A stretch of DNA of 64,000 nt. It comes from a bacterium (GTDB lineage Bacteria; CAYTYR01; UBA6262). Positions within the stretch are counted from its first letter, which is position 1, and every line of letters starts with the position of its first letter. Below the pieces are notes generated by a model, which searched no databases, was not told the DNA's origin, and saw nothing but the letters and a program-made list of their open reading frames with translations. The stretch covers positions 22,366 through 86,365 of the forward strand of contig JAQTQE010000002.1 in assembly GCA_028712365.1 (NCBI GenBank), in the 5' to 3' direction. Shown in pieces: positions 8,566 to 63,860 of the stretch. A program made the translations under genes and the position numbers.

Positions 8566-8663
8566 AAATTCGAAGCACGAATTTCTAAATCCGAAATAAT
8601 TTCAAATATCAAATCACTAATGTTCAAAACAAAACGTTTAGTATTTCGATATTCGAATTTGTT
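8566..8663. repeat. 7-nt periodic inverted junction element
   Basis: Left arm AAATTCG AAGCACG AATTTCT AAATCCG AAATAAT; right arm GTTT AGTATTT CGATATT CGAATTT GTT. Confidence 0.8.
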
Positions 8664-8665
8664 CT

Positions 8666-9880
8666 TTAAAGGTGCCGAGAGATCTTCCCTTTCAGTTCGG
8701 TAAAGTTCGGGGTAATATTTTCTTTCTTACGCCCGAAACAAACACCCATTCTTTCATGGAACCTGACCTGGTCCAGGTCAACAAAACGCTGTTTGATCGC
8801 TTCAGCCGTAGGAATATACTTTACATCTTTGCCTTCAACTCCGGCTACGGTTACCCCGGTGATGCCTTTTTTCAGGAGCAATACGGCAGCGGCTCCTGCT
8901 TCTTTGCCGAAATTGACGTCATACGCGGAAGAATGGCCGGCTCTGACCAAATGGCCTGGAGTGACCGAGCGGATCTCCGGGATCTCATTAATGCCTTTTA
9001 CGTACATATGGTTCTTAATCATATGCTCTTTGGTTTTTGAATCAGCTTTCATCCGCTTGGAAACTTCCTGCACCACATATTTCGCCGCTCCAGCCAGCTT
9101 CTTATGGCCAAAAGCGTCAATGCCTGACGATTCATCATAAAGTTCGGTACCATCAGAGTTCCGCAGGCCTTCTGCTACTACTATCGTATAAGTGCCGGCC
9201 AGGACATCGCTTTCTTCTATCCGGCTCCAATAACGTTTGCTGATGTGCTGGTATAATAAATCGAAATCCACGGGGATCTCAGGGATCAGGATAGCATCCG
9301 AGTCCGCGCCAATGCCGCCACGGAAAGCAGTATGACCGGCATAACGGCCAAATACTTCAATGACCATGATCCGGTTATGGGTGCGGCCGGTAGTCTTTAG
9401 TTCCTGCACGAAATTAGTGATGCGGTTAATAGTAGAATCCGCGCCGACAGAATAAGTTTGCAGGTCCAGGTCCATGGTCTTAGGGGCATGGACGCAGGGA
9501 ATGCCCTGCTGGATCAGGTCCACCATCACACTGCCGGAATCATCTCCGCCGCTGATGACCAGACCGTCTATTTTAAATTTATTCAAACCGTCTTTGATCC
9601 TTTTATATTTATCCGGGTCATCGATCTTTTTGATCTTGACACGGGAATGCCCGGCTTCACTGCCAGCCAGGTTTGATTCGACTGAATCAATGCGCTCCGG
9701 TTGCAGGCTGACCAATTTTTCAAAGTCAACCAGGTTGTACAATCCGGCATAGCCGTTGGGGATAACAAAGACTTCGATCCCTTCTTTGTGCGCCATTTGG
9801 GCAGTGCCTTTCACCACAGCATTCAAGCCGCCGCAATCGCCACCGCTGGTAATTATGCCTATCCGTTTAATCTCACCCAT
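8666..9880 (-). CDS. pfp: Phosphofructokinase, PPi-dependent signature
   Basis: TSGGDCGGLN, GGDDS (Asp104-type), PKTMDLD (Lys124-type). Start MGEIK with SD AGGAGG. Confidence 0.85.
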   Translation of the reverse strand: MGEIKRIGIITSGGDCGGLNAVVKGTAQMAHKEGIEVFVIPNGYAGLYNLVDFEKLVSLQPERIDSVESNLAGSEAGHSRVKIKKIDDPDKYKRIKDGLNKFKIDGLVISGGDDSGSVMVDLIQQGIPCVHAPKTMDLDLQTYSVGADSTINRITNFVQELKTTGRTHNRIMVIEVFGRYAGHTAFRGGIGADSDAILIPEIPVDFDLLYQHISKRYWSRIEESDVLAGTYTIVVAEGLRNSDGTELYDESSGIDAFGHKKLAGAAKYVVQEVSKRMKADSKTKEHMIKNHMYVKGINEIPEIRSVTPGHLVRAGHSSAYDVNFGKEAGAAAVLLLKKGITGVTVAGVEGKDVKYIPTAEAIKQRFVDLDQVRFHERMGVCFGRKKENITPNFTELKGKISRHL

Positions 9881-9926
9881 GATTCTTTTTCTTCCTCCTT
9901 GGTTTAGGGTTTTCTTGGAATAAAAA

Positions 9927-9955
9927 ATTATAGCAAATAAACAGCTAAAAGTAAA
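9927..9955 (-). promoter_or_regulatory. Putative sigma70 promoter of pfp
   Basis: TTTACT, 17 nt, TATAAT on the minus strand. Confidence 0.5.
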
Positions 9956-9962
9956 TAAATTC

Positions 9963-10673
9963 TTATTGCTTTGCCAGGTCGTAACTAACAAGCAAATCTT
10001 TATTGGAAAGGATCTCAGCCGCCGGGCCAAAAGCCTTTAATCGTCCCCGGTTCAGGATGGCTACCTTGTTGCATAGGATACCGACCAATTCCAGATCATG
10101 AGTGGCGATGAGTTTAGTTATATTCAGGTTTTTCAGCAAGTCGATCAGCTCCCAGCGGTGTTTAGGATCCAGGTTACTGGAAGGTTCATCCAGGGCCAGT
10201 ATCTTGGGTTTCATGGAGAGCACTGTAGCCAAAGAGATACGTTTCTTTTCACCGAAACTTAAATGATGGGAAGAGCGAAATTTAACCGGGAGCATATCTA
10301 CTTCTTGCAGGGCCAAGTCCACCTGCCAATTGACTTTGTCTTTACTCCAGCCCATATTGATCGGGCCGAAAGCTACGTCATCATAAACTGATGGCATGAA
10401 TAGCTGATGTTCAGGATCCTGAAAAACCAGGGCAACTTTTTCCCTGACCTGACGAATGGTATCAGGAGTAACTTCCAAACCGTCTATCAGGATATGGTTT
10501 TGTCCAGGCAAGATGCCGTTCAAATGTAATAACAAGGTTGATTTACCGGCACCATTGGGTCCGATCAACCCGACACAATCCCCTTCTTCCACATCCAGGG
10601 AGACGTTTTCCAGGGCCAGGTTACCGTCAGGATAAGTATAGGAAAGTTCTTTGATCTCGATCAATGGGCTCAT
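9963..10673 (-). CDS. cbiO: ECF transporter ATPase (CbiO/EcfA type)
   Basis: GPNGAGKST, VFQDPEHQLF, LSFGEKKR, LDEPSSNLD. Confidence 0.85.
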   Translation of the reverse strand: MSPLIEIKELSYTYPDGNLALENVSLDVEEGDCVGLIGPNGAGKSTLLLHLNGILPGQNHILIDGLEVTPDTIRQVREKVALVFQDPEHQLFMPSVYDDVAFGPINMGWSKDKVNWQVDLALQEVDMLPVKFRSSHHLSFGEKKRISLATVLSMKPKILALDEPSSNLDPKHRWELIDLLKNLNITKLIATHDLELVGILCNKVAILNRGRLKAFGPAAEILSNKDLLVSYDLAKQ

Positions 10674-12006: not shown

Positions 12007-12027
12007 GATTGTTTTATCTTCAGTGTA

Positions 12028-12315: not shown

Positions 12316-12332
12316 TGGTAAACAATATAGTT

Positions 12333-12902: not shown

Positions 12903-12938
12903 GTTTTCCTCCTTTTTTAAATGCGATCACGTGGCGGA

Positions 12939-16736: not shown

Positions 16737-16739
16737 GAA

Positions 16740-22708: not shown

Positions 22709-22780
22709 CAATCTCTGATTACACCGCTTATTAAGAGCGATTACACTGATTAAAGATTTAGTAGGTAATCTGTGAATCTC
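22709..22780. repeat. GATTACAC/GTAATC inverted junction element
   Basis: GATTACAC at 22717 and 22739, TGATT, then GTAATC-TGTGAATC at 22765-22778. Confidence 0.5.
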
Positions 22781-22785: not shown

Positions 22786-24735
22786 TCAATTTTTTAAATA
22801 CAAGTCAAAACTAAACCAGTAAGTACGGCCAGGCAAAGGATAAAAATTGCCGAAACCATCGGTGCGCGTGGCATAACGCTTGTCAAATATATTATCTACT
22901 TTTAACGCCAGGATAGCAGAATTTATTTTTTTCTGTAAGGCAACGCTCCAGATGCTGGCTGACGGGACCTTCAAGCCTCTTTCCCCATCTTGTTCAAAGC
23001 AGGCGCCAAGGAATTGGCTTTGTAAATTGACTGCCACTGTTTCCATGGGCTGGTAGTCCAGCTGATAGGATAATTTGTGTTTGGGCCGAAAAGCCAGCAG
23101 CAGGTAATCAGGGTCACTTTCTTTTTTCCCTTGCGCCTGCATAGCCGTGTAAACAAGTTTGTGCCGTAATTGGCTGGAAAAGGATTGGCTGGTTTCCACT
23201 TCCAGTCCAAGATTCTTTCCCCGGGATACATTTTGGGGCGCATAGCGATATGTGGTCAGGGTGACGTTTTCCTGTTGCCAGATCATCAGGTCCTGGCTAG
23301 CGATATAAAATACGGTCGCTTTGGCCTGGCAGGAATTATTGAATTTGCCTTCCAACCCGAGGTCGTAAGACATGGCTTTTTCCGGCTTCAGGTTACGGTT
23401 ACCGGCGGTGATATAAGTTGTGCCAAAATATGTTTCCTGACTGAATGGCCAAAACAGGTCATTGACGGTAGGTGGACGGAAGCCGCGGGAAATATTCAGG
23501 GAAGTTTTCCAGGTGCTATTTAAAAAATATACCAGGTTCAGACGCGGGTCAAGCTGTCCCCCGCTGATGGAATGGTGGTCATAACGAACACCGAAGGTAT
23601 AAGCCCAGGTTTCGAGCTGGCGCATATACTGGCCATATAGCGATTGGAAGAAAACCGCTTCATCGATCGTGTCGGTATGGGTATTATCATCCCTTTGCCA
23701 GACTGAATCCTGGCGGTATTCTAATCCGGCGCTCCAGCCTGAAAGCAGGTCGAATTGCGTGCTGATACCGTGTGACCGGTTTCGCCGCAGGGTATCAATA
23801 GACCAGTCAGTATTACGATAGACCTGTTTTGTTTCATTCAGGAAAGTACGGACTTTAGCCGTGGTTTCTCCAGCCAGCGCTACCTTATATTCAGCATATG
23901 TTAGATTGGTACGGTCTTCCTGGCGGGCATTAGGTGAAGAGGCTTCCTTTTCGCGTGAATCATCCCAGGAGTCAATAGGTATATTGGAAGGACCGGGCAA
24001 GCCTAAAAAACTCCGGTAATATTGATCATGCAGCCTGAGTGACCCGTATTGCCGCAGGTCATAACCCAATTGCACGCTGTACGCGTTATTATCAAAATCA
24101 TTATTCATTCTCCAGCCATTCGAGAAAGACCGGCTGGCAGACAATAAATAATCAAGCGCGCCTGGCTTCGCGCCATAACTGAACCGGTAAGTCTGGGTAT
24201 TACTGCTGCCAGCCAGTACCGTAATATCCGTCAATGGTTTCTGATCCAGGGGTTTTTTAGTAATTATGTTGACCACTCCCCCAATGGCATTGGCTCCGTA
24301 TATTGCTGATCCGGCGCCGCGGACGATCTCGATGCGTTCTATGTTTTCCAAAGGTATCTGTGATAGGTCAGTCTGTCCCAATGACGGGGAAGTCAAAGGA
24401 AAACCATCCAACAAGACCAGCACCTGATGGCCGGGGACACCGCGAATAGACAAGGTCTGAGCATTACCGAGACTGGCCTGTTTGGGCAAGTCTAATCCCG
24501 CAACCTGGTTCAATATCAGGCTGAGGTCCTGGGTATGGGCCGCGGCGATGTCTTCAGCTTTGATCACGGTGACATTTGTGCCGGTAAGATATGCCGGTTG
24601 GGGAGTCAGGCTGGCGGAAACAACTGTTATGTCTAAGTTGACTTCCGCTCCTTCTTCGGCGTTGACAGGATTAACCGCCATACATAATAATAGCGTTGCT
24701 ACTGTTGCTGCTGTTGCCAAGTAATGCTTTAACAT
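22786..24735 (-). CDS. btuB: TonB-dependent receptor, BtuB-like
   Basis: TonB box ITVVSA, plug SIRG...VLVLLDG...IERIEIVRGAGSAIYGANAIGGVVNIIT, NLKPE, C-terminal GRTYWFSF; last gene of a B12-riboswitch operon. Confidence 0.85.
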   Translation of the reverse strand: MLKHYLATAATVATLLLCMAVNPVNAEEGAEVNLDITVVSASLTPQPAYLTGTNVTVIKAEDIAAAHTQDLSLILNQVAGLDLPKQASLGNAQTLSIRGVPGHQVLVLLDGFPLTSPSLGQTDLSQIPLENIERIEIVRGAGSAIYGANAIGGVVNIITKKPLDQKPLTDITVLAGSSNTQTYRFSYGAKPGALDYLLSASRSFSNGWRMNNDFDNNAYSVQLGYDLRQYGSLRLHDQYYRSFLGLPGPSNIPIDSWDDSREKEASSPNARQEDRTNLTYAEYKVALAGETTAKVRTFLNETKQVYRNTDWSIDTLRRNRSHGISTQFDLLSGWSAGLEYRQDSVWQRDDNTHTDTIDEAVFFQSLYGQYMRQLETWAYTFGVRYDHHSISGGQLDPRLNLVYFLNSTWKTSLNISRGFRPPTVNDLFWPFSQETYFGTTYITAGNRNLKPEKAMSYDLGLEGKFNNSCQAKATVFYIASQDLMIWQQENVTLTTYRYAPQNVSRGKNLGLEVETSQSFSSQLRHKLVYTAMQAQGKKESDPDYLLLAFRPKHKLSYQLDYQPMETVAVNLQSQFLGACFEQDGERGLKVPSASIWSVALQKKINSAILALKVDNIFDKRYATRTDGFGNFYPLPGRTYWFSFDLYLKN

Positions 24736-26559: not shown

Positions 26560-27396
26560 TTAACGGACTTTAATATGGTATATTTTTTCTGCCAATTGCT
26601 CCAGGCCATCGATCAACCGGGGGCCGGGGCGGAGCATCAGGTCTGGATTAATATCGTCAATTAAGTGGTTTTGACGCACTGCCTTGGAATTATTCCAGGC
26701 TTTATTGGCCATAAAATAATTCCTGCTTTGCGGGCTGGTTAAGATAATAAAATCAGGATCCTGTTTAAGGACATATTCAGCGCTTATCCGGCAATAGGGA
26801 CGAGCCAGGTCCCCGGCCACGTTGATCGCCCGCAGCATATTGATCATTTCATCCAGGAAAGTATCCCGGGAAGCGGTCATCAATGGTTGTATGGATATTT
26901 CGATAAATATTTTCGGCGGTGACGTGATCTTGGCGGTTATGGCCTGCATCAATTTGCCGATACGCGCTTTAATTGACTGGTTAAGTATGAAAGCGTATGT
27001 CCCGGTACCGGTTAATTCCCCGATACGAGTAATGGCCGCAAAAAGCTGATTGAAATTATGCGGATCGATTACTTGCACGGTAAAACCTAGTTTTTTCAAC
27101 CTTTCCACTGCCGGATTTTGTTCTAATCCGGTTGCCAGTATCAGGTCTGGTTTTAAAGCGGCGATCTTTTCAATGTTCGGATTGGAGAAATCCCCTACTT
27201 TTTCTTTTTGCGCGCATTGGGGTGGATAATTACAATAAGAAGAAACGCCAACTACTTTATCGCCAAGATTAAGCGCGTATAATATTTCGGTATTGGCTGG
27301 CGCCAGGGAGATAATTCGCTGCGGTAGCCTTTCCCCAGCCTGGGCCATACTGCAATACAATAATGTTACTAATAATATTAGTTTCTTCATAATCAT
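26560..27396 (-). CDS. btuF: Cobalamin-binding periplasmic protein
   Basis: RIISLAPANTE, VGVSSYCNYP, NIEKIAALKPDL, LMLRPGPRL. Confidence 0.85.
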   Translation of the reverse strand: MIMKKLILLVTLLYCSMAQAGERLPQRIISLAPANTEILYALNLGDKVVGVSSYCNYPPQCAQKEKVGDFSNPNIEKIAALKPDLILATGLEQNPAVERLKKLGFTVQVIDPHNFNQLFAAITRIGELTGTGTYAFILNQSIKARIGKLMQAITAKITSPPKIFIEISIQPLMTASRDTFLDEMINMLRAINVAGDLARPYCRISAEYVLKQDPDFIILTSPQSRNYFMANKAWNNSKAVRQNHLIDDINPDLMLRPGPRLIDGLEQLAEKIYHIKVR

Positions 27397-27509: not shown

Positions 27510-27603
27510 CCTTCCCGCGAAGGATTTCTATATTTAGCAAACAGGTATTCGGACTTTAACCGTTGCGGGGCAGTGTCTGATTTTCACAGACTTCCCCTGT
27601 TTG
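27510..27603 (-). ncRNA. Cobalamin riboswitch (minimal form)
   Basis: CAAACAGG-GGAA-GUCUG-UGAAAAU-CAGAC-ACUGCCCCGCAACGGU-UAAAGUCCGAAUA-CCUGUUUG plus hairpin CCUUC-GCGG-GAAGG whose loop complements CCGC (kissing loop); upstream of btuFCDB. Confidence 0.88.
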
Positions 27604-27622
27604 TTTTCATTTCAATAGTACT

Positions 27623-32321: not shown

Positions 32322-32341
32322 TAACCCCCCTGTTGAGATAG

Positions 32342-32425
32342 TTTTAAATTTTGAGTTTTGAGTTTTGAATTATTGTGAAATACTTTTACCTAAACTTAAA
32401 ATTTATAACTCAAAACTTATAACTG
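32342..32425. repeat. 7-nt periodic inverted junction element
   Basis: TTTTAAA TTTTGAG TTTTGAG TTTTGAA ... AAACTTA AAATTTA TAACTCA AAACTTA TAACT. Confidence 0.8.
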
Positions 32426-32441
32426 TTTTTGCTTTTATAAA

Positions 32442-32512
32442 AGCGGGTGATGGGAATCGAACCCACGTATGAAGCTTGGGAAGCTTCCATTCTACCATTG
32501 AACTACACCCGC
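32442..32512 (-). tRNA. tRNA-Gly (CCC), CCA not encoded
   Basis: GCGGGTG acceptor/CACCCGC, D-arm TAGTTCAATGGTAGAA, anticodon stem GAAGC-TTCCCAA-GCTTC, T-arm GTGGGTTCGATTCCCAT, discriminator U. Confidence 0.96.
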
Positions 32513-36943: not shown

Positions 36944-38416
36944 TTATTTTGCTGCAGAGGTCAACATTTTTTTACAGTATTCATATGCTTGTGTCTTAGT
37001 AGTGACCAGTTTTTGCGCTTGTGCTTCCTTCAGGTTATTGATCATCTGGCCAATAAGCGGTCCTTCGGACAGTTTAAATCTTGCCATGATCTCATGACCA
37101 TTGAGCAAGTTTCGCGGCACGATCTGTTTGTGTTCGGTATAATATCTTTTTATGATCGCGCGCACTACCCGTAGATGCTGCGCGGCATTTACCGGATAGA
37201 TATCCTGCTTTTTCCTGGTGATCACGGTTTCTTCCGTAGTGTAAGCATCGGCAATGGATAAGACCAAAGTATCCAGCCCTTCTTCTTTCAGGTCCCGGAA
37301 ATAACGGTAGACCGCTTTATCACTGATCTGGTCCAGCGCCGATAAATTTCCCGGCCGCATATGATTCATAATAATATTTTTGATCGTATTCGTTTCCTTG
37401 TTAGAGAAATGCAGGCGCGCCAGTATTTTGTCCGCGTATTGCGCTCCGGCCAATTCATGGCCGAAGAAACGGCTGCGACGGCCCTCTTTTGTTTCCGTAT
37501 CCGGTTTGCCGAAATCATGCAGCAGGTAGGCTATCTTCAGGGTTACCCAGCGGGGAACACCGGTAATGACTGTCGTCTGCAGATGCCGGGTTATTCTAGG
37601 GCCATAGCCAGGCAAGTATTTATTTGTTTTAAGGATAATATTTTCCAGGTGCGACAATCCCGAAAGCGTATGGCTCCAGACGCCTGCCGGGCCATAAAAA
37701 TTCCTGGCCGCGGCTTTTAATTTGTTTATCTCCGGCAATAATACTTCCAGCAGGCCCTGTTTATCCATAGCTTTGATAAAGGTAACGCTAGCGGGGCAGG
37801 ATAATATTTTAAGAAGCTCTTCCCGCACTCTTTCCATAGAAACTTTTTTGATCAAGCGGTTCTGGCGTGATATCAATGATAAGGATTTTGCTTCCATTTT
37901 AAATCCCAGGACCGCGGCCAGGCGGAAAGCCCGCAACATGCGCAGCGGATCATCCTTATATATATCTTTCCCCACCATCCGGATGGTTTTGTTCTTAAGG
38001 TCTTTTTGCCCTCCAAAAGGGTCTATCAGGTTTTTTCTATCAACTATCAACAATGAACTATCAACTAATCCCATCGCCATCGCGTCTATCGTAAAATCCC
38101 GTAATGACAGGTCTGCTTCAATAGAGCCGCCGCGCAATTCAGCGAAATCGTAATTAAAGATCATTGGTGGTTGATCGTTCGTGGTTCGTAGTTTCAGGAC
38201 TACGCGGTAGATTTTGTTTTCTTCATCCAAAGAGAAATAGCTTCCTTTGGTGGCTTTGGCAAATTTCTTTGCCAGGCCCCGGGCGTCTTTGCAGGCCAGG
38301 TCAATATCTTTAGTGTCCCGCCGCAGCAGGATATCGCGCACAATACCGCCGACCAGGTAGATTTTATGGGTATGTTTGATCGTTTGTAATTTATTCTGGA
38401 TTCCAGCAACAGACAA
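36944..38416 (-). CDS. tRNA nucleotidyltransferase with HD domain, CC-adding type
   Basis: YLVGGIVRD, KDIDL, DLSLRDFTIDAMA, DDPLRMLRAFR, H...LLHDFGKP; flexible loop between motifs A and B missing. Start placed at TTG 38416 (SD AAGGAG 9 nt upstream); the track gives GTG 38458. Confidence 0.85.
   Translation of the reverse strand: MSVAGIQNKLQTIKHTHKIYLVGGIVRDILLRRDTKDIDLACKDARGLAKKFAKATKGSYFSLDEENKIYRVVLKLRTTNDQPPMIFNYDFAELRGGSIEADLSLRDFTIDAMAMGLVDSSLLIVDRKNLIDPFGGQKDLKNKTIRMVGKDIYKDDPLRMLRAFRLAAVLGFKMEAKSLSLISRQNRLIKKVSMERVREELLKILSCPASVTFIKAMDKQGLLEVLLPEINKLKAAARNFYGPAGVWSHTLSGLSHLENIILKTNKYLPGYGPRITRHLQTTVITGVPRWVTLKIAYLLHDFGKPDTETKEGRRSRFFGHELAGAQYADKILARLHFSNKETNTIKNIIMNHMRPGNLSALDQISDKAVYRYFRDLKEEGLDTLVLSIADAYTTEETVITRKKQDIYPVNAAQHLRVVRAIIKRYYTEHKQIVPRNLLNGHEIMARFKLSEGPLIGQMINNLKEAQAQKLVTTKTQAYEYCKKMLTSAAK
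38037..38193. repeat. Pair of oppositely oriented heptamer arrays inside the nucleotidyltransferase CDS
   Basis: CTATCAA CTATCAA CAATGAA CTATCAA CTAATCC (38037-71) and GATCATT GGTGGTT GATCGTT CGTGGTT CGTAGTT (38159-93). Confidence 0.65.
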
Positions 38417-41033: not shown

Positions 41034-41046
41034 TATTTTGCCTTTT

Positions 41047-41070
41047 CAATCAACTATCGACAAGCTACAG
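41047..41070. repeat. Short heptamer arm at the oppC stop
   Basis: CAATCAA CTATCGA CAAGCTA CAG, same type as 38037-38071. Confidence 0.45.
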
Positions 41071-41880: not shown

Positions 41881-41892
41881 ATTAACCTCGAA

Positions 41893-42010
41893 GAAGCAGG
41901 TTGTAGGTCTTGGAAGTAAGTATGGAAGTAAGATGTAGGTTTTAAGGCTTCAAGCCCAACTTCCTGAGACTTTAGACTATACCTACTTCTAAACCCAACA
42001 CCCTACTTCT
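41893..42010. repeat. GAAGTARG-unit inverted junction element
   Basis: Left arm 41893-41932 is 33/40 identical to the reverse complement of 49686-49725; right arm contains CCTACTTC units. Confidence 0.75.
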
Positions 42011-42014
42011 ATTT

Positions 42015-45621: not shown

Positions 45622-45622
45622 C

Positions 45623-45657
45623 CTCTACCCCTCTAAACCTTTATACCTTTACACCTG
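45623..45657. repeat. 8-nt periodic arm at the yqeY stop / next SD
   Basis: CTCTACCC CTCTAAAC CTTTATAC CTTTACAC CTG. Confidence 0.55.
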
Positions 45658-48412: not shown

Positions 48413-48430
48413 GTTATCTCCTTCGGAGTA

Positions 48431-48500
48431 AATCCTAATTTCTAAACTCTAAATACTAAACCATGAAAATTCGAATTTAGATCTTAGAATTTCGAGTTTG
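48431..48500. repeat. 7-nt periodic inverted junction element
   Basis: AATCCTA ATTTCTA AACTCTA AATACTA AAC ... TTCGAAT TTAGATC TTAGAAT TTCGAGT TTG. Confidence 0.8.
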
Positions 48501-48505
48501 TTTTA

Positions 48506-48850
48506 TCAACCGGGGGGCCATTGCAGTTTCCTGCCCCCTAACATGTGCAGATGGATGTGACTGACTGCCTGACCGGCATCTGCTCCGTTATTAATGACCA
48601 GCCGGAAACCGCTTTTCTCGATCTTGTATTCCTTAGCCAGTTTTTTGGCGATCAGGTGGAGATAACCCATGATCTCACAGTCCTGGCCGGATAAATCACT
48701 AATGGAAGAAATATGCTTTTTCGGGATAATTAAAATATGAACCGGCGCTTGCGGCCCGATATCGTGAAACGCTAAAACTTTATCGTCTTCATAGGCGATT
48801 TTTGCCGGGATCTTCTTAGCGACTATTTTACAAAATAAACAATTAGTCAT
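48506..48850 (-). CDS. Histidine triad nucleotide-binding protein (HinT-like)
   Basis: CLFCKI, HDIGPQAPVHILIIPK, HIHLHMLGG; start MTNCL with SD AAGGAG. Confidence 0.95.
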   Translation of the reverse strand: MTNCLFCKIVAKKIPAKIAYEDDKVLAFHDIGPQAPVHILIIPKKHISSISDLSGQDCEIMGYLHLIAKKLAKEYKIEKSGFRLVINNGADAGQAVSHIHLHMLGGRKLQWPPG

Positions 48851-48863
48851 ATTTTTCTCCTTC

Positions 48864-48898
48864 AACCCGCAACTCGAAGCTCGCTAACTCGTAACTGT
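48864..48898. repeat. Solo heptamer arm
   Basis: AACCCGC AACTCGA AGCTCGC T AACTCGT AACTG between a stop codon and an SD. Confidence 0.6.
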
Positions 48899-48900: not shown

Positions 48901-49590
48901 TTACACGTTAAACTTAATTTCAATAATATCGCCATCCCGGGTCAGGTATTCCTTTCCCACTGTTTTAAGAAATCCTTTGGTCTTGGCTTCCTGCAAGTTA
49001 TGACATTGCATCAGGTCGTCATAACTGACGATATCGGCCCGGATGAAACCGCGAGCCAGGTCAGTATGTATCTCGCCGGCGCACTCTACGATCGTACTGC
49101 CTTCAGGGAAAGGCCAGGCATGGACTTCCTTTTTGCCAACAGTGTAGAAAAAGAGAACTCTGGCTTTATGCAAGACCTGCTGGATATATAAATTAGTATC
49201 CTCCAGCTTGGACGCTACATAGGTGGGTTTCCAACTAAGCGGAGCCAAGCCGCGCATAATAACGGTTTCTTCCGCGTCAAAAGGGACATTGCATAAAGGC
49301 TGTTCCAGTTCCAGGGCTTCCTGACATTTCAGGAGCAAAGCTTTTTCTTTCGGATCCTGGGTTTTAGCCAGGCGGCCTTCTATCTTTTCTATGTCTTGGA
49401 TAAGCAGGTCCAGCAGCTTTTCATATTTGATCAGGATAGCGTCAACATTAAGCATCTCATCTTTGACAAACTCGGCAAAGAACGGTGTTTCTTTTTGCGG
49501 CTCGAATTTATCCACCATTTTCTTGAACCGTTCATCTTCGTACTTTATTTTTCCTTCCTTTAAATCAAACCCAACAAAGCCGATCTTCAC
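48901..49590 (-). CDS. YchF/DUF933-like protein lacking NTPase motifs
   Basis: YchF C-terminus FYTVGKKEVHAW...AGEIHTDLARGFIRA...GKEYLTRDGDII; N-terminus lacks GxxxxGKS and DxxG; GTG start. Confidence 0.8.
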   Translation of the reverse strand: MKIGFVGFDLKEGKIKYEDERFKKMVDKFEPQKETPFFAEFVKDEMLNVDAILIKYEKLLDLLIQDIEKIEGRLAKTQDPKEKALLLKCQEALELEQPLCNVPFDAEETVIMRGLAPLSWKPTYVASKLEDTNLYIQQVLHKARVLFFYTVGKKEVHAWPFPEGSTIVECAGEIHTDLARGFIRADIVSYDDLMQCHNLQEAKTKGFLKTVGKEYLTRDGDIIEIKFNV

Positions 49591-49609
49591 TTATACCTCC
49601 TAATAGAAT

Positions 49610-49725
49610 ATGTCTATGGTTACAGGTTGTGGACGCCAGTATGGTCATTTGGCTATAGTCTTAGGTCCAAACCAAGTACCTTAGACATACTTCCATACCT
49701 ACTTCTAAAACCTACACCTTACTTC
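49610..49725. repeat. GAAGTARG-unit junction element
   Basis: CATACTTC CATA CCTACTTC TAAAA CCTACA CCTTACTTC; related to 41893-42010; overlaps the DUF4416 stop. Confidence 0.7.
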
Positions 49726-50251: not shown

Positions 50252-50433
50252 AAGTACAAATACTAATTTCGAATATCTAAATTCTCCCCTGCTGATCCCG
50301 ATAAATCGGGATCAAAGACGCGAGGACAGGTAAACAATATCAAATGTCCTAATATCAAAACTAAAGCATGTATTTGTTTGAGAAATTATAATTTTGGATT
50401 TGTTTAGTATTTCGATATTAGATATTAGAATTT
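50252..50433. repeat. 7-nt periodic inverted element with nested 46-bp hairpin insert
   Basis: AAATACT AATTTCG AATATCT AAATTCT [insert 50286-50331] AAAC ... GTTT AGTATTT CGATATT AGATATT AGAATTT; insert has the perfect stem TGATCCCGAT/ATCGGGATCA. Confidence 0.8.
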
Positions 50434-50439: not shown

Positions 50440-52098
50440 TTATTGCTGCAGCGTATATTTCTGCAGTGTTTTGGGCACGTACCACTTAGTGAAATTATGA
50501 CCAATACCGATAGGTTCGACTTTGATATCCTGGAAACGTTTATCGACCGCGATCAACGAATCACGAACATAGAGAAAAGCATATGGCTGGTCTTCCGCTA
50601 TCAAGGCGTGCACTTTATGGTAGATCTTCATGCGTTCTTCCCGGTCGAATGTTTTTCTTCCCAGGGCCAGCAGGATATCTACCTGGGGATTCTTATAGGA
50701 AATAAAATTATATTCGCCTTCCTTGGTCTTTTCAGAAGACCAGATATCGAAACAATCAGGATCAGGGGTCATGCTCCAGCCTAACAAGATGGCTTCAAAA
50801 TTCTTTTTATCTATGTATTGGTGGATCAAAGTACTCCACTCCAGTATCCGCACATTTACTTTGATCCCGACCTTCTTCAATTGTTCCTGAATAATGGTAG
50901 CGGCTAGTTCGCGTTCTTTGTTACCCTGATTAGTGAGAATGGTAAATTCAAATACTTTGCCTCCCTTTTCCAGGTACCCGTCTCCGTTGCTGTCTTTCCA
51001 GCCGATACTGGCCAGCATAGCCCTGGCTTTTTCCGGATCATAATCATAAGGTTTTACCGCCGGGTTGTAAGCCCAGGAGCGGTTCGGGAATGGCCCCGTG
51101 CAAATAGTGCCCATAGACTGCAATGTGCCGTCGATTATTTCCTGGCGGTTGATCGCATAGCTGAGCGCCTGCCTGGTCCAGCGGCTATTTTTAAAAAGAG
51201 GATTATTAAGATTGTAAGCCAAATACGTATAATTAAACGAAGGATACCGGAACCGGTTGATCCCTTGCTCAAATTCCGGATCATTGGCCTCTTTGACATA
51301 CATATCCGCGGTCAAGCTCATCATATCAATAGTATGGGTTTTCAGCGAAAGCAGCTGTACTGATTGGTCAGGAATGATCTGGTAAATATATTTGTCAATA
51401 TAGGGACGGCCTTCAAAATAGTCGGGGTTGGATTCCAATACAACTTTTTGTCCGGTGCGCCATTCCTTGAATTTGTATGGACCGGTCCCGATGGGAAAAC
51501 GGTTAAAATCGCTCTGGTTGAATTCTTCCGCAGTCATTTCACCAAAAACGTGTTTTGGCAGTATGCCCATTCCCCAGGATTCCAGGGCCGGGGCAAAAGG
51601 CTCTTTATACGTGACAGTGACCGTAAAAGGATCCGGGGCCTCTACTTTAGAGACCAATTGGAAATTGCTGGAGAAAGCGGTCTTGATGCCAGGATCGATC
51701 AGTTTCTGGTAAGTAAAGATCACGTCTTCGCTAGTGAAGGGAAACCCATCGTGCCACTTGACGTTTTTTCGCAAAAAGAAAGTGATGGTCAAACCATCTT
51801 TGGAGACATCCCATTTTTCCGCCAGATCCCCTGCCAGTTTAATATCTTTATCATATTTTACCAGACCGTTGAATACCAAGTCGATAATATCGAATGAAGA
51901 ACTATCCGAGGCCAGGATCGGATTTAAAATACTCGGCTCCCCGATGGAACCGTAAATAATGGCATCCCCGTAAACCGGTATACTTTCCACAGTCGCTAAT
52001 CGCGAGCCTGGCCCATTGCTATGGTTTTTCACGAAATAAATAACGGTAACTCCGACCAGAGCAATTAAAATAAACACGAGCAGCATCTTCTTAGTCAC
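50440..52098 (-). CDS. oppA: Peptide ABC substrate-binding protein (OppA/AppA family)
   Basis: LNPI, VFNGLV, LAEKW, FLRKNVKWHDG, PIGTGPYKF, RQALSYAINR; GTG start. Confidence 0.9.
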   Translation of the reverse strand: MTKKMLLVFILIALVGVTVIYFVKNHSNGPGSRLATVESIPVYGDAIIYGSIGEPSILNPILASDSSSFDIIDLVFNGLVKYDKDIKLAGDLAEKWDVSKDGLTITFFLRKNVKWHDGFPFTSEDVIFTYQKLIDPGIKTAFSSNFQLVSKVEAPDPFTVTVTYKEPFAPALESWGMGILPKHVFGEMTAEEFNQSDFNRFPIGTGPYKFKEWRTGQKVVLESNPDYFEGRPYIDKYIYQIIPDQSVQLLSLKTHTIDMMSLTADMYVKEANDPEFEQGINRFRYPSFNYTYLAYNLNNPLFKNSRWTRQALSYAINRQEIIDGTLQSMGTICTGPFPNRSWAYNPAVKPYDYDPEKARAMLASIGWKDSNGDGYLEKGGKVFEFTILTNQGNKERELAATIIQEQLKKVGIKVNVRILEWSTLIHQYIDKKNFEAILLGWSMTPDPDCFDIWSSEKTKEGEYNFISYKNPQVDILLALGRKTFDREERMKIYHKVHALIAEDQPYAFLYVRDSLIAVDKRFQDIKVEPIGIGHNFTKWYVPKTLQKYTLQQ

Positions 52099-54810: not shown

Positions 54811-54841
54811 AAAAAAGCACGGGAAAATACTTCCCCCGTGC
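54811..54841 (-). terminator. Intrinsic terminator
   Basis: GCACGGG/CCCGTGC stem followed by U6. Confidence 0.75.
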
Positions 54842-57801: not shown

Positions 57802-57833
57802 AATCTCGAAACACTAATATCGAAATTCTAAAC
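57802..57833. repeat. Solo heptamer arm
   Basis: AATCTCG AAACACT AATATCG AAATTCT AAAC. Confidence 0.7.
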
Positions 57834-57846
57834 CAGGTCAGGAATA

Positions 57847-58494
57847 TTATTGGTCAATTAAGCCGATGTCGGCGACTATTACTTTGCCAGTATATTTTTT
57901 AGCAGCGGATTTGGAAAATCCTATTTTAGGAAAACCCAGGGTCACGGTTAAAGCGGCTGAAATGCAGGTACCCAGGGATTGGCCAGTGTCAGCGTTGAGC
58001 CCGCTGGGAATATCAATGCTGATTATTTTTACACCACTTTTATTTAAATCGTCAATAATTATTTTATATAATCCCGTGATCGGGCCATGGCTGCCCGTGC
58101 CCAGTAATCCATCTATGACCAGGTTGAAATACTGGACTTGTTCTTTTAAGCCAGGCCAGTTATCCAGGATCATGTGGATAGGAAGATGCAGGTTTTCGAC
58201 AATGGCGAAATTAAGGCGGGTCTCAGTACTGGAGTTGGCCAGCGCACCGCTGAAAAAGATCTCCACTTTTTGCCCGTAATGATGCAACCAGCGGGCGGCA
58301 ACCAGGCCATCCCCGCCGTTATTGCCAGGTCCGCAAAAAACCGCTACTTTTTTATTTTTCCTGGAGAGCAGTTTGCAGGCTTCGTCAGCCACTGCTTTGC
58401 CGGCATGGTCCATCAGTACCTGGGCGGGAACGCCATACGTATTGATTGTCTGGTTGTCGATAGCGCGCATTTGCTGAGTAGTTACTTTTTTCAT
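57847..58494 (-). CDS. nnrE: NAD(P)H-hydrate epimerase (stand-alone YjeF_N)
   Basis: LMDHAG, CGPGNNGGDGLVAAR, IDGLLGTG, SIDIPSG, TVT, VADIG. Confidence 0.92.
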   Translation of the reverse strand: MKKVTTQQMRAIDNQTINTYGVPAQVLMDHAGKAVADEACKLLSRKNKKVAVFCGPGNNGGDGLVAARWLHHYGQKVEIFFSGALANSSTETRLNFAIVENLHLPIHMILDNWPGLKEQVQYFNLVIDGLLGTGSHGPITGLYKIIIDDLNKSGVKIISIDIPSGLNADTGQSLGTCISAALTVTLGFPKIGFSKSAAKKYTGKVIVADIGLIDQ

Positions 58495-60136: not shown

Positions 60137-60172
60137 TGCTCCTCCATAATTAAGACAATTTCAAATGGGTTT

Positions 60173-60207
60173 AGCTTTAAGCATCTAGCATTCAGCATCT
60201 AGCTTAC
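60173..60207. repeat. Solo heptamer arm overlapping the Memo stop
   Basis: AGCTTTA AGCATCT AGCATTC AGCATCT AGCTTAC. Confidence 0.7.
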
Positions 60208-61008
60208 TATCACTCCGGCGTACCCTACTACTTCTTTAGTGTCTCCGGTGATAGTGCCACTGGTATCATAACTCACCAAACTGGCTTTAGTTGCTCCTAA
60301 CGACCTGGCTGCGTATAGCATGACTGCCGCCGGAGCTACACCGCACATGCTGATGTCATACTTAGTCACCGTGGATAACAATTTATCCGGTTGCAAAGCC
60401 AGGATCTGCTGGATCGCCAGATTATCCTTTTTCCTGGCCTCGTCGATGCTTTCATAATGAGTCATATCAGATGACGCCAGGACCAGGATATCCTGTTTGC
60501 TTTCTTTTATCGCGCCGGCTATCCCTTCTCCCAGGATGCGGCATATTTCGGGAGATTGGGTGCCCAGGATAAGAGGGACGATCTTCACGTCTTTGCGGAA
60601 ATAGCGAAGAAAAGGAAGTTGTATTTCCAGCGAATGTTCCTGGTCATGGGCAGTATCATCGAGCGAAATTGTGCCGCCGCAAAGTTCAGTTATCCTTTTA
60701 CTGAAAGAGCTATCCAGGGTCACTGCCCCACCCGGTGTTTGCCAGGTGTCATGATCTGACAAGGATATCATGTAGCCCTGGCCGATATGATTAGGACCGA
60801 TCATAATGACTGTCGACGGGATCCTGGTAGAAGCATATACCCGAGCGGCTACTTCCCCTGAATATAACCAGCCGGCATGCGGTACCATGATACCAATGGC
60901 TTTACGGGCCATAACTTTTTTATTGGTCAGGTATGAATCAATAGTGTCGTTAATAGTATCTTCCGTGCCTGGATACCAGGTACCGGCATATACTGCTTTC
61001 CTGGACAT
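60199..61008 (-). CDS. Memo-family protein (AmmeMemoRadiSam protein B)
   Basis: AVYAGTWYP, PHAGWLYSG, GPNH, EHSLEIQLPFL, ASSDMTHY, SMCG, VVGYAG. Confidence 0.92.
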   Translation of the reverse strand: MSRKAVYAGTWYPGTEDTINDTIDSYLTNKKVMARKAIGIMVPHAGWLYSGEVAARVYASTRIPSTVIMIGPNHIGQGYMISLSDHDTWQTPGGAVTLDSSFSKRITELCGGTISLDDTAHDQEHSLEIQLPFLRYFRKDVKIVPLILGTQSPEICRILGEGIAGAIKESKQDILVLASSDMTHYESIDEARKKDNLAIQQILALQPDKLLSTVTKYDISMCGVAPAAVMLYAARSLGATKASLVSYDTSGTITGDTKEVVGYAGVIVS

Positions 61009-61054
61009 ATATGGCTCCCTATGCCCGAGATTATAGCTCAAAAATTCGCTAAAG

Positions 61055-61972
61055 TCAAGATTCTTGTATCCAGCCATTGTTCAGGCTAAGTAGTTTGAGT
61101 TTTTCCAGGACAACCGTATACTCTTCTTTAGTGATCTTCCGGTTTAATTCAGGTATGCCGCAGGCTAAGTGCCGTGGTGTGTATTGGCTCATAATGCTTA
61201 GGTAGGTTTGGTTGCTGATCTTGCCGGCAATGAATTCCAGCAAGGGTATGCTGCCGGCGATATTGCCTGGCAGGACCAGGTGCCTGATGATCAATCCCCG
61301 GCAGGCGATCCCTTCGTCATCAAGTATCAGGTCCCCTACTTGCCGGTACATCTCTAGTAAAGCAGCCTGGTTTATCTCGGCGTAATGAGGCGCCTGGGAA
61401 TACTTTTTAGCCATAGCGTTATCACTATATTTGGCATCAGGGAGATAAATGTCAATAATACCATCTAGCAATCGTAGCGTTTCCAGGCTTTCGTATCCGC
61501 CGCAGTTGTAGACCAGCGGCAGGTGAAAACCCTGTGCAATAGCTTTTTCCAAAGCTGCCATGATCTGTGGGACATAGATCGTGCCGGTTACCAGATTGAC
61601 ATTATGGCACTTCTTGCTTTGTAAAAAGAGCATGATCCGGGTAAGTTCGTCGACGGAAATTGTGGTCCCGTTGCCAAAATGGCTAATGGGATAATTCTGG
61701 CAGAAAACGCAACGCAGGTTACAATGAGTAAAAAAGATCGTACCAGAACCGGCGCTGCCGCTAATAGCAGGTTCTTCGCCAAAATGGGCGTTGAAAGAAG
61801 AGATCTCAGGAGACAACCCGGCATGACAGAAACCTTGTTCGTCATGTTGGCGGTCAACATGGCATAGCCGCGGACAGAGGCCACAGTTGGCCAGTTGCCG
61901 GTAAGCCTGTTTTACGCGTTCGGCCAGGATACCGTCTTGGTACAATTTTAAATACGACGGGGTAAAAGACAC
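61055..61972 (-). CDS. Radical SAM protein, PflX-like
   Basis: CGLCPRLCHVDR, HFGEEP, GSGTIFFTHCNLRCVFCQNY, YLPDAKY, IRHLVLPG. Confidence 0.9.
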   Translation of the reverse strand: MSFTPSYLKLYQDGILAERVKQAYRQLANCGLCPRLCHVDRQHDEQGFCHAGLSPEISSFNAHFGEEPAISGSAGSGTIFFTHCNLRCVFCQNYPISHFGNGTTISVDELTRIMLFLQSKKCHNVNLVTGTIYVPQIMAALEKAIAQGFHLPLVYNCGGYESLETLRLLDGIIDIYLPDAKYSDNAMAKKYSQAPHYAEINQAALLEMYRQVGDLILDDEGIACRGLIIRHLVLPGNIAGSIPLLEFIAGKISNQTYLSIMSQYTPRHLACGIPELNRKITKEEYTVVLEKLKLLSLNNGWIQES

Positions 61973-62559
61973 TAGAAGCTCTTGGAAATGAGAGTTATCG
62001 TCAGGATAGTGAACAAGATCAGGGAGACAACCAGCAGGAAAAAAGTAGCAATGAACGGAATAATATATACGGAGATGGCTTTTCCGGTTTGCAGGTGATA
62101 AATTATCTTCAAGCTTTTAACTTGTAAGAACAAGATCCAGATGATAATTACCAGGTAGATGAAAATATAAAGTAAATGACTGCCCAATCCCAAACCCCTG
62201 CTCAAGATCGCTCCGGCCGGCAGGAAGATCAATGGCAAAAGACTGGCCCCGAACAGGATAAAAAGATTATTGATACTGCCTTCTGTTTTATGCCAGGAAG
62301 CGATAAAATGAAACAAAGAAGTCATGGTGATCCAGAATACGACAAAAGCAAAAAGCTTGGCCAGGTACCCGAGGGTAAGCATGCTGGTGACCTGCTCGGA
62401 ACCAAGATTATCTATCAGCAACACCGCTATACTTTGACAGAATAAACCTACGGCCGCTGTTAAGGAAGATAACCACAACGGTTTCCTGGAGGCTAATAGT
62501 TCATTGAATCCCTGCTCCGGATCAGTAATGATCTTAATGATTATTCCTAATTGTTCCAT
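61972..62559 (-). CDS. YIP1-family membrane protein
   Basis: IITDPEQGF N-terminus, five hydrophobic segments, K..YHLQTGKA. Confidence 0.7.
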   Translation of the reverse strand: MEQLGIIIKIITDPEQGFNELLASRKPLWLSSLTAAVGLFCQSIAVLLIDNLGSEQVTSMLTLGYLAKLFAFVVFWITMTSLFHFIASWHKTEGSINNLFILFGASLLPLIFLPAGAILSRGLGLGSHLLYIFIYLVIIIWILFLQVKSLKIIYHLQTGKAISVYIIPFIATFFLLVVSLILFTILTITLISKSF

Positions 62560-62562
62560 TGC

Positions 62563-63519
62563 TTACTCCATTAGATAGGCCAGACGGGTATCGCTTCTGT
62601 CCAATACTTTCGTGAATTGCGCCAGGCTATTCTCTTCTGTCTTATGACCAAATATCTCAAATACCTTTTCCATCGGGGAATAGTCTTTAATAATATACGG
62701 CTCGCCTTTCAGGCCGGCTAAATCAGCGGCTACTTGTATCGCGTCCGGCAAGTTGCCCAGCTGGTCAATCAGGCCTTTATTCAGGGCCTGTTCGCCGGTA
62801 AAGATAGAACCATCAGCCAGCTGTTTTACCTGGTCATAGGTCATTTTCCGGCCGTCTACGATGACTTTAATGAATTGCTCGTAACTATTGTCGATCAGGC
62901 CTTGCAATAATTTTTTCTCCGCTTCATCCGGGGAACGCCAATAAGCGCCGATGTCCTTGGATTTTCCGCTCTTGACCACTTCCATTTTTACGCCGATCTT
63001 TTTAAAGAGTTCCTGCATATTGCCAAAATTGAAGATCACTCCGATGCTGCCGGTGATAGTAGAAGGATTGGCTACGATCCGGTCAGCCGCGCAGGAAATA
63101 TAATAGGCACCGCTGGCGCCGACGTCACCCATGGAGACAACTATTTTTTTGCCGTTCTGGCGCAGTTTTTTTACTTCTTCATAGATCTCCTGGCTGGCTC
63201 CGGTGCTGCCACCAGGGGAATTGATCCTAAGGACCACGGCTTTAATGTATTTATTTTTGTCGATCTTCCTGAGGCGGTCAACGATGGCATCAGATCCCGA
63301 AAGGAATCCAGGGAACATGGAATACTGGCGTTCTACAAAAATCTCGCCATAAATATAGACGATCGCTATGCCTTCCTTGCCCAGTGAAGGCAATTCTAAT
63401 TTGCTTGATTCTTTGAACGAGGAAACAGGAGATTGTTTAAAAACCAGCACCAATCCCAGCAGGACCGAAAGGCCGCATAAACCCAGCAATATGTAAGTGA
63501 ACAGTGTTTTTCTATCCAT
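62563..63519 (-). CDS. sppA: Signal peptide peptidase SppA (36K type)
   Basis: LRINSPGGS, ASGAYYIS, TGSIGV, KSGKSKD, GSIFTG; SD AAGGAG. Confidence 0.93.
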   Translation of the reverse strand: MDRKTLFTYILLGLCGLSVLLGLVLVFKQSPVSSFKESSKLELPSLGKEGIAIVYIYGEIFVERQYSMFPGFLSGSDAIVDRLRKIDKNKYIKAVVLRINSPGGSTGASQEIYEEVKKLRQNGKKIVVSMGDVGASGAYYISCAADRIVANPSTITGSIGVIFNFGNMQELFKKIGVKMEVVKSGKSKDIGAYWRSPDEAEKKLLQGLIDNSYEQFIKVIVDGRKMTYDQVKQLADGSIFTGEQALNKGLIDQLGNLPDAIQVAADLAGLKGEPYIIKDYSPMEKVFEIFGHKTEENSLAQFTKVLDRSDTRLAYLME

Positions 63520-63554
63520 CGGCAAAACTCCTTATTTTTTGGCCAGCATGTTTT

Positions 63555-63716
63555 CTATTCTTCGATATTTTTTTGTTTATGTAGAAGCAAAAGCTGTAAT
63601 TCGCCTTTTCTTTTTTGCAGTTCTACCAGTTCCAGTTGTTTTAAGACGATATCAATTTCCAATTGGTCGAGCCTTTTTTTGATCCCATCTGCCGTTAAAC
63701 CATTTTTTGCGCACAT
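63555..63716 (-). CDS. 53-aa Leu-rich coiled-coil small protein (below the ORF-track cutoff)
   Basis: Manual translation MCAKNGLTADGIKKRLDQLEIDIVLKQLELVELQKRKGELQLLLLHKQKNIEE; SD AAGAGGGGG 5 nt upstream. Confidence 0.5.
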   Translation of the reverse strand: MCAKNGLTADGIKKRLDQLEIDIVLKQLELVELQKRKGELQLLLLHKQKNIEE

Positions 63717-63737
63717 TGCAGCCCCCTCTTAAAATAA

Positions 63738-63860
63738 AAATCCGAAGTACTAATATCTAAACCCTAAACAGATATACCAAACAAATACGATTTGTATTTA
63801 GAACATTTGCAATTGTTTAGAATTTAGAAATTAGATATTATACATTAGAGTTTTAGCATT
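63738..63860. repeat. 7-nt periodic inverted junction element
   Basis: AAATCCG AAGTACT AATATCT AAACCCT AAAC ... TTAGAAT TTAGAAA TTAGATA TTATACA TTAGAGT. Confidence 0.8.

Follow-up and report, generated by a model that had tools for sequence, protein, structure and literature searches.

Intervening sequences (IVSs) of bacterial ribosomal RNA (rRNA) have been known since 1990. Their complementary termini form an extended stem-loop, within which RNase III cuts them out, and they optionally carry an open reading frame (ORF) for S23p, a homopentameric four-helix bundle; in the Coxiella IVS, variable GACAGAT heptamer repeats precede this ORF (PMC4990558). The origin of these sequences and the role of the S23p/PF05635 proteins have remained open since the early 1990s. 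Heptanucleotide repeats of cyanobacteria, named STRR, were reportedly described by Mazel in 1990. According to the accounts of Mrazek (2007) given in PMC4692102 and PMC4679880, heptamer repeats are over-represented in many bacteria. The DNA considered here is a 64,000-nucleotide stretch of contig JAQTQE010000002.1 (assembly GCA_028712365.1), called the window below, in which arrays with a period of 7 nt recur at the junctions between genes. A first-pass annotation of the letters alone had described them as one family of at least 10 loci. The arrays are real, and they mix at least three unrelated classes. In the account that we favour and regard as probable, the first class (A-type) consists of gene-less palindromes of the IVS kind, the second (B-type) is a separate hairpin family and the plain arrays are heptamer-biased repeats. 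The A-type sequences form a bounded palindromic family that spans several phyla, exists in gene-bearing and gene-less forms and resides in rRNA helices as well as in operon junctions.

A palindromic family of rRNA helices and operon junctions

Judged by sequence, five window loci (Table 1) are gene-less ('solo') members of one discrete palindromic family, a status that the first-pass annotation had already proposed. An nhmmer profile built from 31 metagenome copies, none of them from the window, detected all five with E-values of 5e-12 to 5e-4; in 1.26 Mb of unrelated genomes and loci, which served as the control for both the family and the cargo counts, it found a single match, in a Syntrophales metagenome-assembled genome (MAG). 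The arm pattern CKAATWTCKAAAYNCTAAAC occurs in the window five times exactly and three more times with at most two mismatches, against 0.03 expected, and the 18-mer GTTTAGTATTTCGATATT, noticed earlier as shared by positions 8636 and 50402, is indeed found at both. The site at 22709, formerly counted as a variant, has no lag-7 signal (z = -1.0) and an nhmmer E > 1. Among the five copies, the one at 48430-48503 has outer arms with almost no inner part, and the one at 50252-50433 carries in one arm a nested GC-rich hairpin of 45 nt (50286-50330, CCUGUCC..GAUCCCGAUUUAUCGGGAUC.., -19.2 kcal/mol). Small unrelated palindromes are also seen in the loops or arms of other A-type copies (loci L118 and L105/L137, and the helix-25 copy of L161).

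The family is common in environmental metagenomes, where a scan with the arm pattern returned at least 120 matching stretches; the family figures refer to the matches listed. These copies are strikingly uniform. The 32-nt outer arm, AAATYCT AAATYCT AATATCT AAATYCT AAAC, is made of AAATYCT-type heptamers and terminates in CTAAAC. Together with an AAATTCA-like inner run it forms a half of about nine to ten heptamers, followed by a loop and by the inverted counterpart of that half. Conservation begins sharply 12 nt before the search pattern, and the information content rises from 0 to about 1.8 bits exactly at the outer arm end. Among the matches listed, 67 copies are paired, many with an identical geometry of 32 + 67 + 32 nt, and the typical element measures about 131 nt. 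The contigs that host them range from 27 to 61% G+C, and the flanking genes may be co-directional, convergent or divergent, the last two arrangements accounting for 18 of the 44 copies with ORFs on both sides. Copies in three unrelated contigs (L133, L148 and L156) have a common 5' flank, ..GCGTGGCAATCTC.., which suggests that the element is associated with another repeat or has inserted into one. The arms of L098, L099 and L170 contain exact copies of the plant-type telomere unit (CCCTAAA/TTTAGGG), probably by coincidence, and L166 and L146 contain long perfect CTCTAAA tandem arrays that are not bounded elements.

The only recurrent cargo of the fetched A-type copies is a four-helix-bundle protein of about 120 amino acids (aa). 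Eleven such genes were found in 0.70 Mb of metagenome loci selected by the arm pattern and none in the control (p = 1.2e-5). Their products match TIGR02436 (E 1e-12 to 2e-16) and PF05635 (E 1e-15 to 4e-18), the closest solved structure being 2RLD. Seven of the genes lie exactly between A-type arms like those of the window copies, and four between heptamer arms with other units. The inner 5' arm of gene-less copies (..AAATGACCAAAATTCAAAAC) coincides with the ORF start of gene-bearing ones (ATGACCGAAAT..AATTCAAAACAATATGA; the match is also given as ATGACCGAAAT..TCAAAAC). Because the first 30 nt or so of the ORF persist in them, the gene-less copies look like internal-deletion derivatives of the gene-bearing ones.

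An independent sample, chosen by protein and not by arms, was obtained by a tblastn search of plasmid records with one cargo protein, which gave 16 records, of which eight were fetched. The hosts were Nostoc, Planktothrix, Anabaena, Dolichospermum, Pseudanabaena, Bernardetia, Chondrinema and Ca. Chlorohelix (Cyanobacteriota, Bacteroidota and Chloroflexota). In all eight plasmids, the annotated 'four helix bundle protein' gene was a small insert between larger genes, for example between an RND adaptor and permease, a helicase and methylase, or cas2 and cas1. Lag 7 was the best lag in 14 of the 15 testable flanks (z up to 10.5), and the upstream and downstream arrays were reverse complements where both sides were comparable. 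The unit differs by taxon; AATTCGT, CGTAAAT and CCCCAAT heptamers (Nostoc-, Dolichospermum- and Planktothrix-type, respectively) bracket these genes. The link between such arms and four-helix-bundle (23S rRNA IVP-like) genes, put forward in the first-pass annotation, is general, since all eight plasmid genes, from several phyla, have heptamer-periodic flanks. Its further claim that the unit varies while the period is constant holds across this superfamily in the plasmid sample; within the window it is partly an artefact, because the list of loci mixes unrelated classes. The link to GxxExxY genes, also put forward there, is not supported: it rests on a single PDDEXK_3 gene, whose AT-rich arms are of a different kind. 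This PDDEXK_3 (GxxExxY-type) gene, in L130 (1880-2480), is bracketed by a direct repeat of an AT-rich arm of about 40 nt (TAGTAATCGCGAATATACAAAAT..) with an inverted copy further downstream; the layout [arm]-ORF-[arm]-loop-[inverted arm] resembles that of L181, which has a four-helix-bundle gene. In Anabaena cylindrica pANACY.01 (L215), the heptamer-flanked four-helix-bundle gene between cas2 and cas1 lies on the strand opposite to both, and in Pseudanabaena (L213) such a gene adjoins cas1.

A-type copies were also found within rRNA. Three large-subunit (LSU) rRNA genes were present among the fetched loci, and in two of them A-type copies replace the loops of helices 25 and 45, the classical IVS sites: helix 25 in L199 (model position 583/584) and in L161, and helix 45 in L161 (model position 1218/1219). 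The profile that matches the window copies, with E-values down to 5e-12, includes the helix-45 copy of L161. The family contains bona fide 23S rRNA IVSs, a long-known class, and the notion of an undescribed system is not supported. None of the window copies is in rRNA; all five lie between protein-coding genes. The LSU gene of L161 (1509-6155) is 4647 nt long against a model of 2925 nt and has several insertions, that of L185 (1379-5470) contains two group I introns, and L199 has, at the site aligning with the helix-45 insertion of L161, a different heptamer-type insertion with ACAATTA units.

Period, placement and turnover of the arrays

The periodicity perceived in the letters is real. When 28-nt windows were slid along the whole window, eight loci reached at least 19/28 matches at lag 7, compared with 0.05 loci in dinucleotide shuffles and with 0-2 loci at each other lag from 4 to 16, except for the double period of 14, which gave five. 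The intergenic match fraction peaks at lags 7 (0.314), 14 (0.310) and 21 (0.300), against about 0.27-0.29 elsewhere, and lag 7 is the best lag in nine of the 32 intergenic segments of at least 28 nt (chance 1/11, p = 0.0017). Tandem Repeats Finder (TRF) placed arrays of period 7 or 14 at 32340, 32392, 38037, 38159, 50414, 57798, 60172 and 63817, all TRF units being imperfect (73-88% matches), and the 8-nt variant expected near 45623 was recovered at 45622. Stop codons in all three frames were considered as the cause of the period and rejected, the pattern not being consistently present.

Table 1. Array and hairpin loci of the window. z, z-score of the lag-7 signal; lag-7 fractions, matches in 28 nt; SD, Shine-Dalgarno sequence; CDS, coding sequence
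Feature	Position	Strand	Evidence	Setting
A-type solo	8566-8663	.	nhmmer E = 1.3e-11; pattern matches; sense fold -29.8 kcal/mol	Fills the spacer from PFK-domain gene stop (8666-8668) to SD/start (8549) of LpoB-domain gene
A-type solo, short copy	48430-48503	.	nhmmer E = 6.2e-5; arm-pattern near-matches; lag-7 19/28	HIT-gene stop (48506-48508); PilT-like gene start (48412)
A-type solo with nested hairpin	50252-50433	.	nhmmer E = 5.2e-12 for 50331-50432, plus outer arm 50258-50285	SBP_bac_5 gene stop (50440-50442); DUF4416 gene start (50243)
Single A-type arm (half element)	57802-57840	.	nhmmer E = 5.2e-4; exact arm-pattern match 57814-57833	YjeF_N gene stop (57847-57849); GAD-domain gene start (57782)
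A-type solo	63738-63860	.	nhmmer E = 3.4e-11; two exact arm-pattern matches; lag-7 22/28	Abuts stop codon 63859-63861 of a gene running off the window end (C-terminus presumably Dtd-like); 212 nt upstream of S49 peptidase start
B-type hairpin, GAAGTAGG/GGTGTAGG arms	41881-42014	.	Fold -44.2 kcal/mol; z = 4.9	Nitroreductase gene stop; OppC gene start
B-type hairpin	49591-49718	.	Fold -32.9 kcal/mol	DUF4416 gene stop; truncated YchF-like gene start
C-type single heptamer array	41034-41070	-	z = 2.6; best lag 7	Overlaps OppC stop, reaches SD of OppD
C-type single heptamer array, CGAGTTA-like units	48864-48898	-	z = 3.2	YchF-like gene stop; HIT gene SD
C-type heptamer/14-mer array, GCTAGAT-like	60173-60207	-	TRF period 14, 2.3 copies; lag-7 19/28; z = 2.8	Overlaps Memo-like gene stop (60199-60201)
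8-nt array GTNTARAG	45622-45656	-	TRF period 8, 4.4 copies; sole lag-8 locus	YqeY gene stop; Macro-NUDIX gene start; every unit SD-like; partly conserved in L086
Inverted heptamer pair, T-rich arm first (TTTTGAG x3 vs AACTCAA)	32333-32428	.	TRF; lag-7 22/28, 19/28	14-16 nt downstream of tRNA-Gly(CCC) (32442-32512); 20 nt upstream of PIN-PhoH gene
Two in-CDS heptamer arrays	38037-38193	-	lag-7 21/28, 19/28	Within CCA-adding/poly(A)-polymerase gene

The placement between a stop codon and the next SD in co-directional runs, also part of the earlier description, was confirmed for 11 of the 12 elements outside coding sequence, all in minus-strand junctions; the exception follows the tRNA-Gly gene. 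In these junctions, the element ends 0-19 nt from the upstream stop codon or overlaps it by 6-9 nt. On the opposite side, 10 of the 11 come within 1-36 nt of the start codon that follows; the gap at 63738-63860 is 212 nt. Hairpins downstream of stop codons could in principle be intrinsic transcription terminators or attenuators. However, none of the eight elements between 44001 and 64000 was called terminator-like, the stems are AT-rich without a U-tract and the elements lie inside tight co-directional runs directly against the next SD; this explanation is very improbable and was rejected. The sole clear canonical intrinsic terminator between 44 and 64 kb (54817-54841, minus strand; an 11-bp stem with a T-run) immediately precedes the first M16 peptidase gene, in a gap of 111 nt. 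In the related contigs L081 and L085, the gap before this gene likewise holds a similar stem with a T-run. Some longest-ORF calls (7938-8627, 48506-48865 and 60199-61077) extend into elements because they start at TTG or ATG codons of the heptamer arms. Starts supported by an SD lie at 8549, 48850 and 61008, the last two in agreement with the protein lengths of relatives (HIT, 114 aa; Memo, 269 aa).

At about 45% G+C, the window consists of closely packed minus-strand cellular genes, including a PFK-domain gene, a TonB-dependent receptor, Opp transport genes, two M16 peptidases, a CCA-adding enzyme and PhoH. It contains one tRNA-Gly and one AdoCbl-II riboswitch, and an Rfam search of the window found no rRNA and no known family at any element. 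The riboswitch (27535-27612, minus strand, 56.7 bits) is in a 500-nt gap upstream of the gene at 26560-27396, and the TonB-dependent receptor gene (22786-24735) is further downstream of it. A phage or cyanobacterial origin of the window was considered and rejected: there is no match in a phage collection, the genes are cellular and the nearest named relatives are Elusimicrobia MAGs. The SBP_bac_5 product has relatives at 77-95% protein identity from uncultured 'bacterium' and Elusimicrobia MAGs, and contigs in that identity range (L081-L086 and L207 among them) were used for comparisons of synteny. Among GTDB species representatives, an M16 peptidase query found relatives of at most 36% identity, and no synteny was obtained. 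The YchF-like protein of the window (48901-49590, 229 aa) keeps the C-terminal DUF933/TGS part and has no recognisable GTPase domain; its N-terminus is VKIGFVGFDLKEG, not a P-loop, and this form of 224-229 aa is kept in all relatives fetched (L081 and L083-L086).

Comparison of orthologous junctions, including sites without an A-type copy, revealed a patchy presence of the family. Between the SBP_bac_5 and DUF4416 genes, the window shares an A-type copy with L081 (85% aa identity) and L082, but the copies of these two relatives lack the nested insert. The same junction in L207 (95%), L086 (91%) and L085 has short arrays of CAGT-, GCGG- and CAG-type heptamers and no A-type copy. At the YjeF_N-GAD junction, L081 has a GAAGTAGG-type hairpin instead of the A-type arm, and at the HIT-PilT-like junction L085 has a different hairpin. 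The OppC-OppD junction holds four different arrays in four genomes (AGCGGAT in L081, GTTGATA in L083 and TGGCAGA in L085, besides that of the window). Between the YchF-like and HIT genes, arrays with other units are found in L081 and L083, a weak one in L086 (z = 1.1) and only 16 nt in L085.

The single-arm loci are compatible with open-ended arrays whose copy number changes by slippage, as units and lengths differ at the same junction among relatives; the A-type arms, with a fixed length of 32 nt and a sharp end, do not fit this description. The pair beside the tRNA-Gly gene did not match the A family significantly (nhmmer E = 2.9). The two arrays in the CCA-adding/poly(A)-polymerase gene are real period-7 arrays, as had been reported, and they are also genuine coding sequence and not an inserted pair. 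Their translations, GLVDSSLLIVDR and TTNDQPPMI, correspond to variable loops of the nucleotidyltransferase head domain; the Pfam head domain is matched end to end, and alignment with homologues in the PDB disclosed no insertion relative to the solved structures. Over a stretch of 33 nt, the first of them shares 94% identity with an array that is intergenic in L083.

One rival view is that all arrays, those of the A-type among them, arose neutrally through heptamer-biased slippage during replication, with hairpins formed by the chance adjacency of an array and an inverted copy. The over-representation of heptamer repeats in many bacteria, for which slippage related to the polymerase footprint has been proposed (PMC4692102, PMC4679880), the unrelated units at orthologous junctions, the arrays inside a CDS and the lack of covariation between arms (see below) agree with it. 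As an explanation of every array it is nevertheless unlikely. The A-type copies have a sharp outer boundary and a fixed geometry, and their 32-nt arm is shared between contigs of very different G+C content; they are tied to one protein family and occupy classical IVS sites of 23S rRNA, and the imperfect units are not those of freshly slipped arrays. For the four single-arm arrays (three heptamer, one octamer) and the in-CDS arrays, heptamer-biased repeat formation of the kind known in bacteria is the best explanation.

The hairpins at 41881-42014 and 49591-49718 are, from their arms, best assigned to a separate, lineage-specific family of similar layout. The arm of the second, of about 31-33 nt, is 90-94% identical to those of other B copies. 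Both have counterparts in L081 (18094-18226 and 12298-12425) that are identical at 133/133 and 126/128 nt, compared with about 78% for the flanking genes. On the upstream side the high identity stops abruptly; downstream, and only there, it fades gradually over about 700 nt that extend into the adjoining gene. A recent event of transfer or conversion is suggested, or else a very strong constraint. The hairpin at 41881-42014 had no copy in about 200 other loci compared, and the B-type was traced in the window and L081 only, the metagenome scan having used the A-type pattern alone.

Hairpin structure and the weighing of the IVS reading

The A- and B-type window loci fold, as sense-strand RNA, with minimum free energies of -17 to -45 kcal/mol. 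The family mean is -33.4 kcal/mol, against -17.6 kcal/mol for shuffled sequences, and the stems are real as a property of the family. Pairing is confined to the periodic CTAA/TTAG positions, the variable triplets being free and, if anything, slightly anti-correlated.

Several results weigh against reading the A-type copies as mobile palindromes of the IVS kind and against extending that reading to the remaining loci. The outer arms are no more complementary within a copy (0.74) than between copies (0.756), with no covariation, and real copies fold no better than chimeras (-33.4 against -36.1 kcal/mol). It follows that no selection on a precise stem is detectable. In 34 co-directional metagenome contexts, the sense strand was the more stable in 18 and the antisense strand in 16, without asymmetry. 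No target-site duplication was seen in the 14-nt flanks of the 67 paired copies, and no transposase or recombinase was found among the cargo of the fetched copies, so that mobility rests on indirect signs. The window, as already stated in the first-pass annotation, contains no four-helix-bundle gene by tblastn, and none was found in about 85 kb of its relatives. The presence of an A-type copy in the window and L081, but not in the closer L207 and L086, needs more than one event. Finally, the GAAGTAGG hairpins and the single-arm arrays have no sequence connection to the A family and share its layout only.

The earlier suggestion of selection on structure is not supported by these results. RNA-level selection for the stem was rejected, given that RNAalifold recovered seven pairs only and that the comparisons of arms, chimeras and strands were all null. 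A related proposal is that the elements are selected by the host as RNA elements of polycistronic mRNAs, either stabilising or processing hairpins or SD-adjacent arrays that regulate translation like the TAACTGA repeats, for which precedent has been proposed (PMC4679880). In its favour, 10 of the 12 elements occupy the whole stretch from stop codon to SD, several relatives also have arrays at a given junction, and the sense fold beats the antisense fold in six of the seven A-type hairpins folded (six in the window and one in L081). This last preference disappears in the larger set of co-directional contexts, and an RNA-level host function is weakened because no strand asymmetry exists there. 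The copies in convergent and divergent spacers and in rRNA, the absence of the A-type copy from close relatives and the missing compensatory change between arms speak against the proposal as well, and we regard it as improbable. The IVS reading accommodates the sharp ends, the single cargo family and the rRNA copies, and is retained for the A-type loci.

Proposed course of events and comparison with known systems

In the Elusimicrobiota-like host of the window, the A-type copies in intercistronic spacers would be co-transcribed with their operons. By analogy with rRNA IVSs, the long imperfect stem may then be cut by RNase III, an event that would split the polycistron at the junction and leave the stem halves on the new 3' and 5' ends. 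The elements themselves may spread as selfish DNA; we infer that they are mobile or horizontally exchanged because of their patchy distribution, their sharp ends and their spread across hosts. If the hairpins are RNase III sites, such elements would rewire operon processing wherever they land. One family is thus found in two rRNA helices (25 and 45), at operon junctions and around a cargo gene, and the 'IVS' ceases to be a peculiarity of rRNA: it becomes a dispersed element that exists with and without a gene. The classical rRNA IVS looks like a dispersed element of operon junctions that is probably mobile. The heptamer repeats of cyanobacteria and other phyla, so far unexplained, thereby gain a concrete candidate for their source. 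In practice, spacers of this kind can be masked or labelled simply with the arm profile, which also guards against over-long ORF calls (7938-8627, for instance). A bolder and improbable idea is that the element's own pentameric S23p/Avd-like protein recognises the heptamer run as a lattice, binding five successive heptamers, or one arm, on nucleic acid in single-stranded or hairpin form. Protein and arms would then be a self-contained processing or copying module, and STRR repeats, rRNA IVSs and junction hairpins would all derive from one widespread and hitherto unrecognised class of mobile element.

The window arrays, as defined by TRF and the lag-7 scan, have at least three head-to-tail units of 7 nt and in this simple sense are heptamer repeats. 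They share with STRR, long simple sequence repeats (LSSR; Mrazek 2007), the Xanthomonas GGGAATC repeats (PMC4692102) and the TAACTGA repeats (PMC4679880) the 7-nt unit and an intergenic, often start-adjacent position. They also share the occasional inverted pairs and the variation of length and sequence at one junction between related strains. In contrast to those reports, which describe simple tandem arrays without defined ends or cargo, the A-type arrays are the arms of a bounded palindrome of about 131 nt tied to PF05635.

Like miniature inverted-repeat transposable elements (MITEs) and repetitive extragenic palindromic (REP) sequences or REPINs, the A-type copies are short, multi-copy, palindromic and intergenic, vary in presence between relatives and include non-coding derivatives alongside longer gene-bearing relatives. 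Unlike them, they have inverted arms without target-site duplication in the copies inspected and no transposase-encoding relative, their cargo being a four-helix-bundle protein in place of a transposase or RAYT. Moreover, the arms are AT-rich heptamer runs, whereas REP/REPIN palindromes are GC-rich and 20-40 nt long. The accessory protein Avd of diversity-generating retroelements is a homologue of PF05635 proteins and acts on nucleic acid together with another enzyme. The cargo protein belongs to the same fold family, but neither a reverse transcriptase nor a template or variable repeat lies next to the elements examined.

In the literature searched, IVSs are defined as elements of 16S and 23S rRNA only, and no description of four-helix-bundle, GxxExxY or IVS elements outside rRNA was found. 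The ingredients (rRNA IVSs, PF05635 proteins and heptamer repeats) are known kinds. Their unification, and IVS-type elements with heptamer-run arms and gene-less forms in intercistronic spacers, were not found in the searchable literature, which is incomplete and may hold an earlier description. The closest comparison is with the 23S rRNA IVSs of Salmonella, Leptospira, Coxiella and other bacteria, with which the A-type family shares complementary termini, an optional four-helix-bundle ORF and a sporadic distribution. As in the Coxiella IVS, heptamers stand next to the ORF start, and members of the family are themselves inserted in LSU helices 25 and 45. The window copies differ from rRNA IVSs in that they occupy the intercistronic spacers of mRNAs, are multi-copy (five in 64 kb) and have long heptamer runs as their arms.

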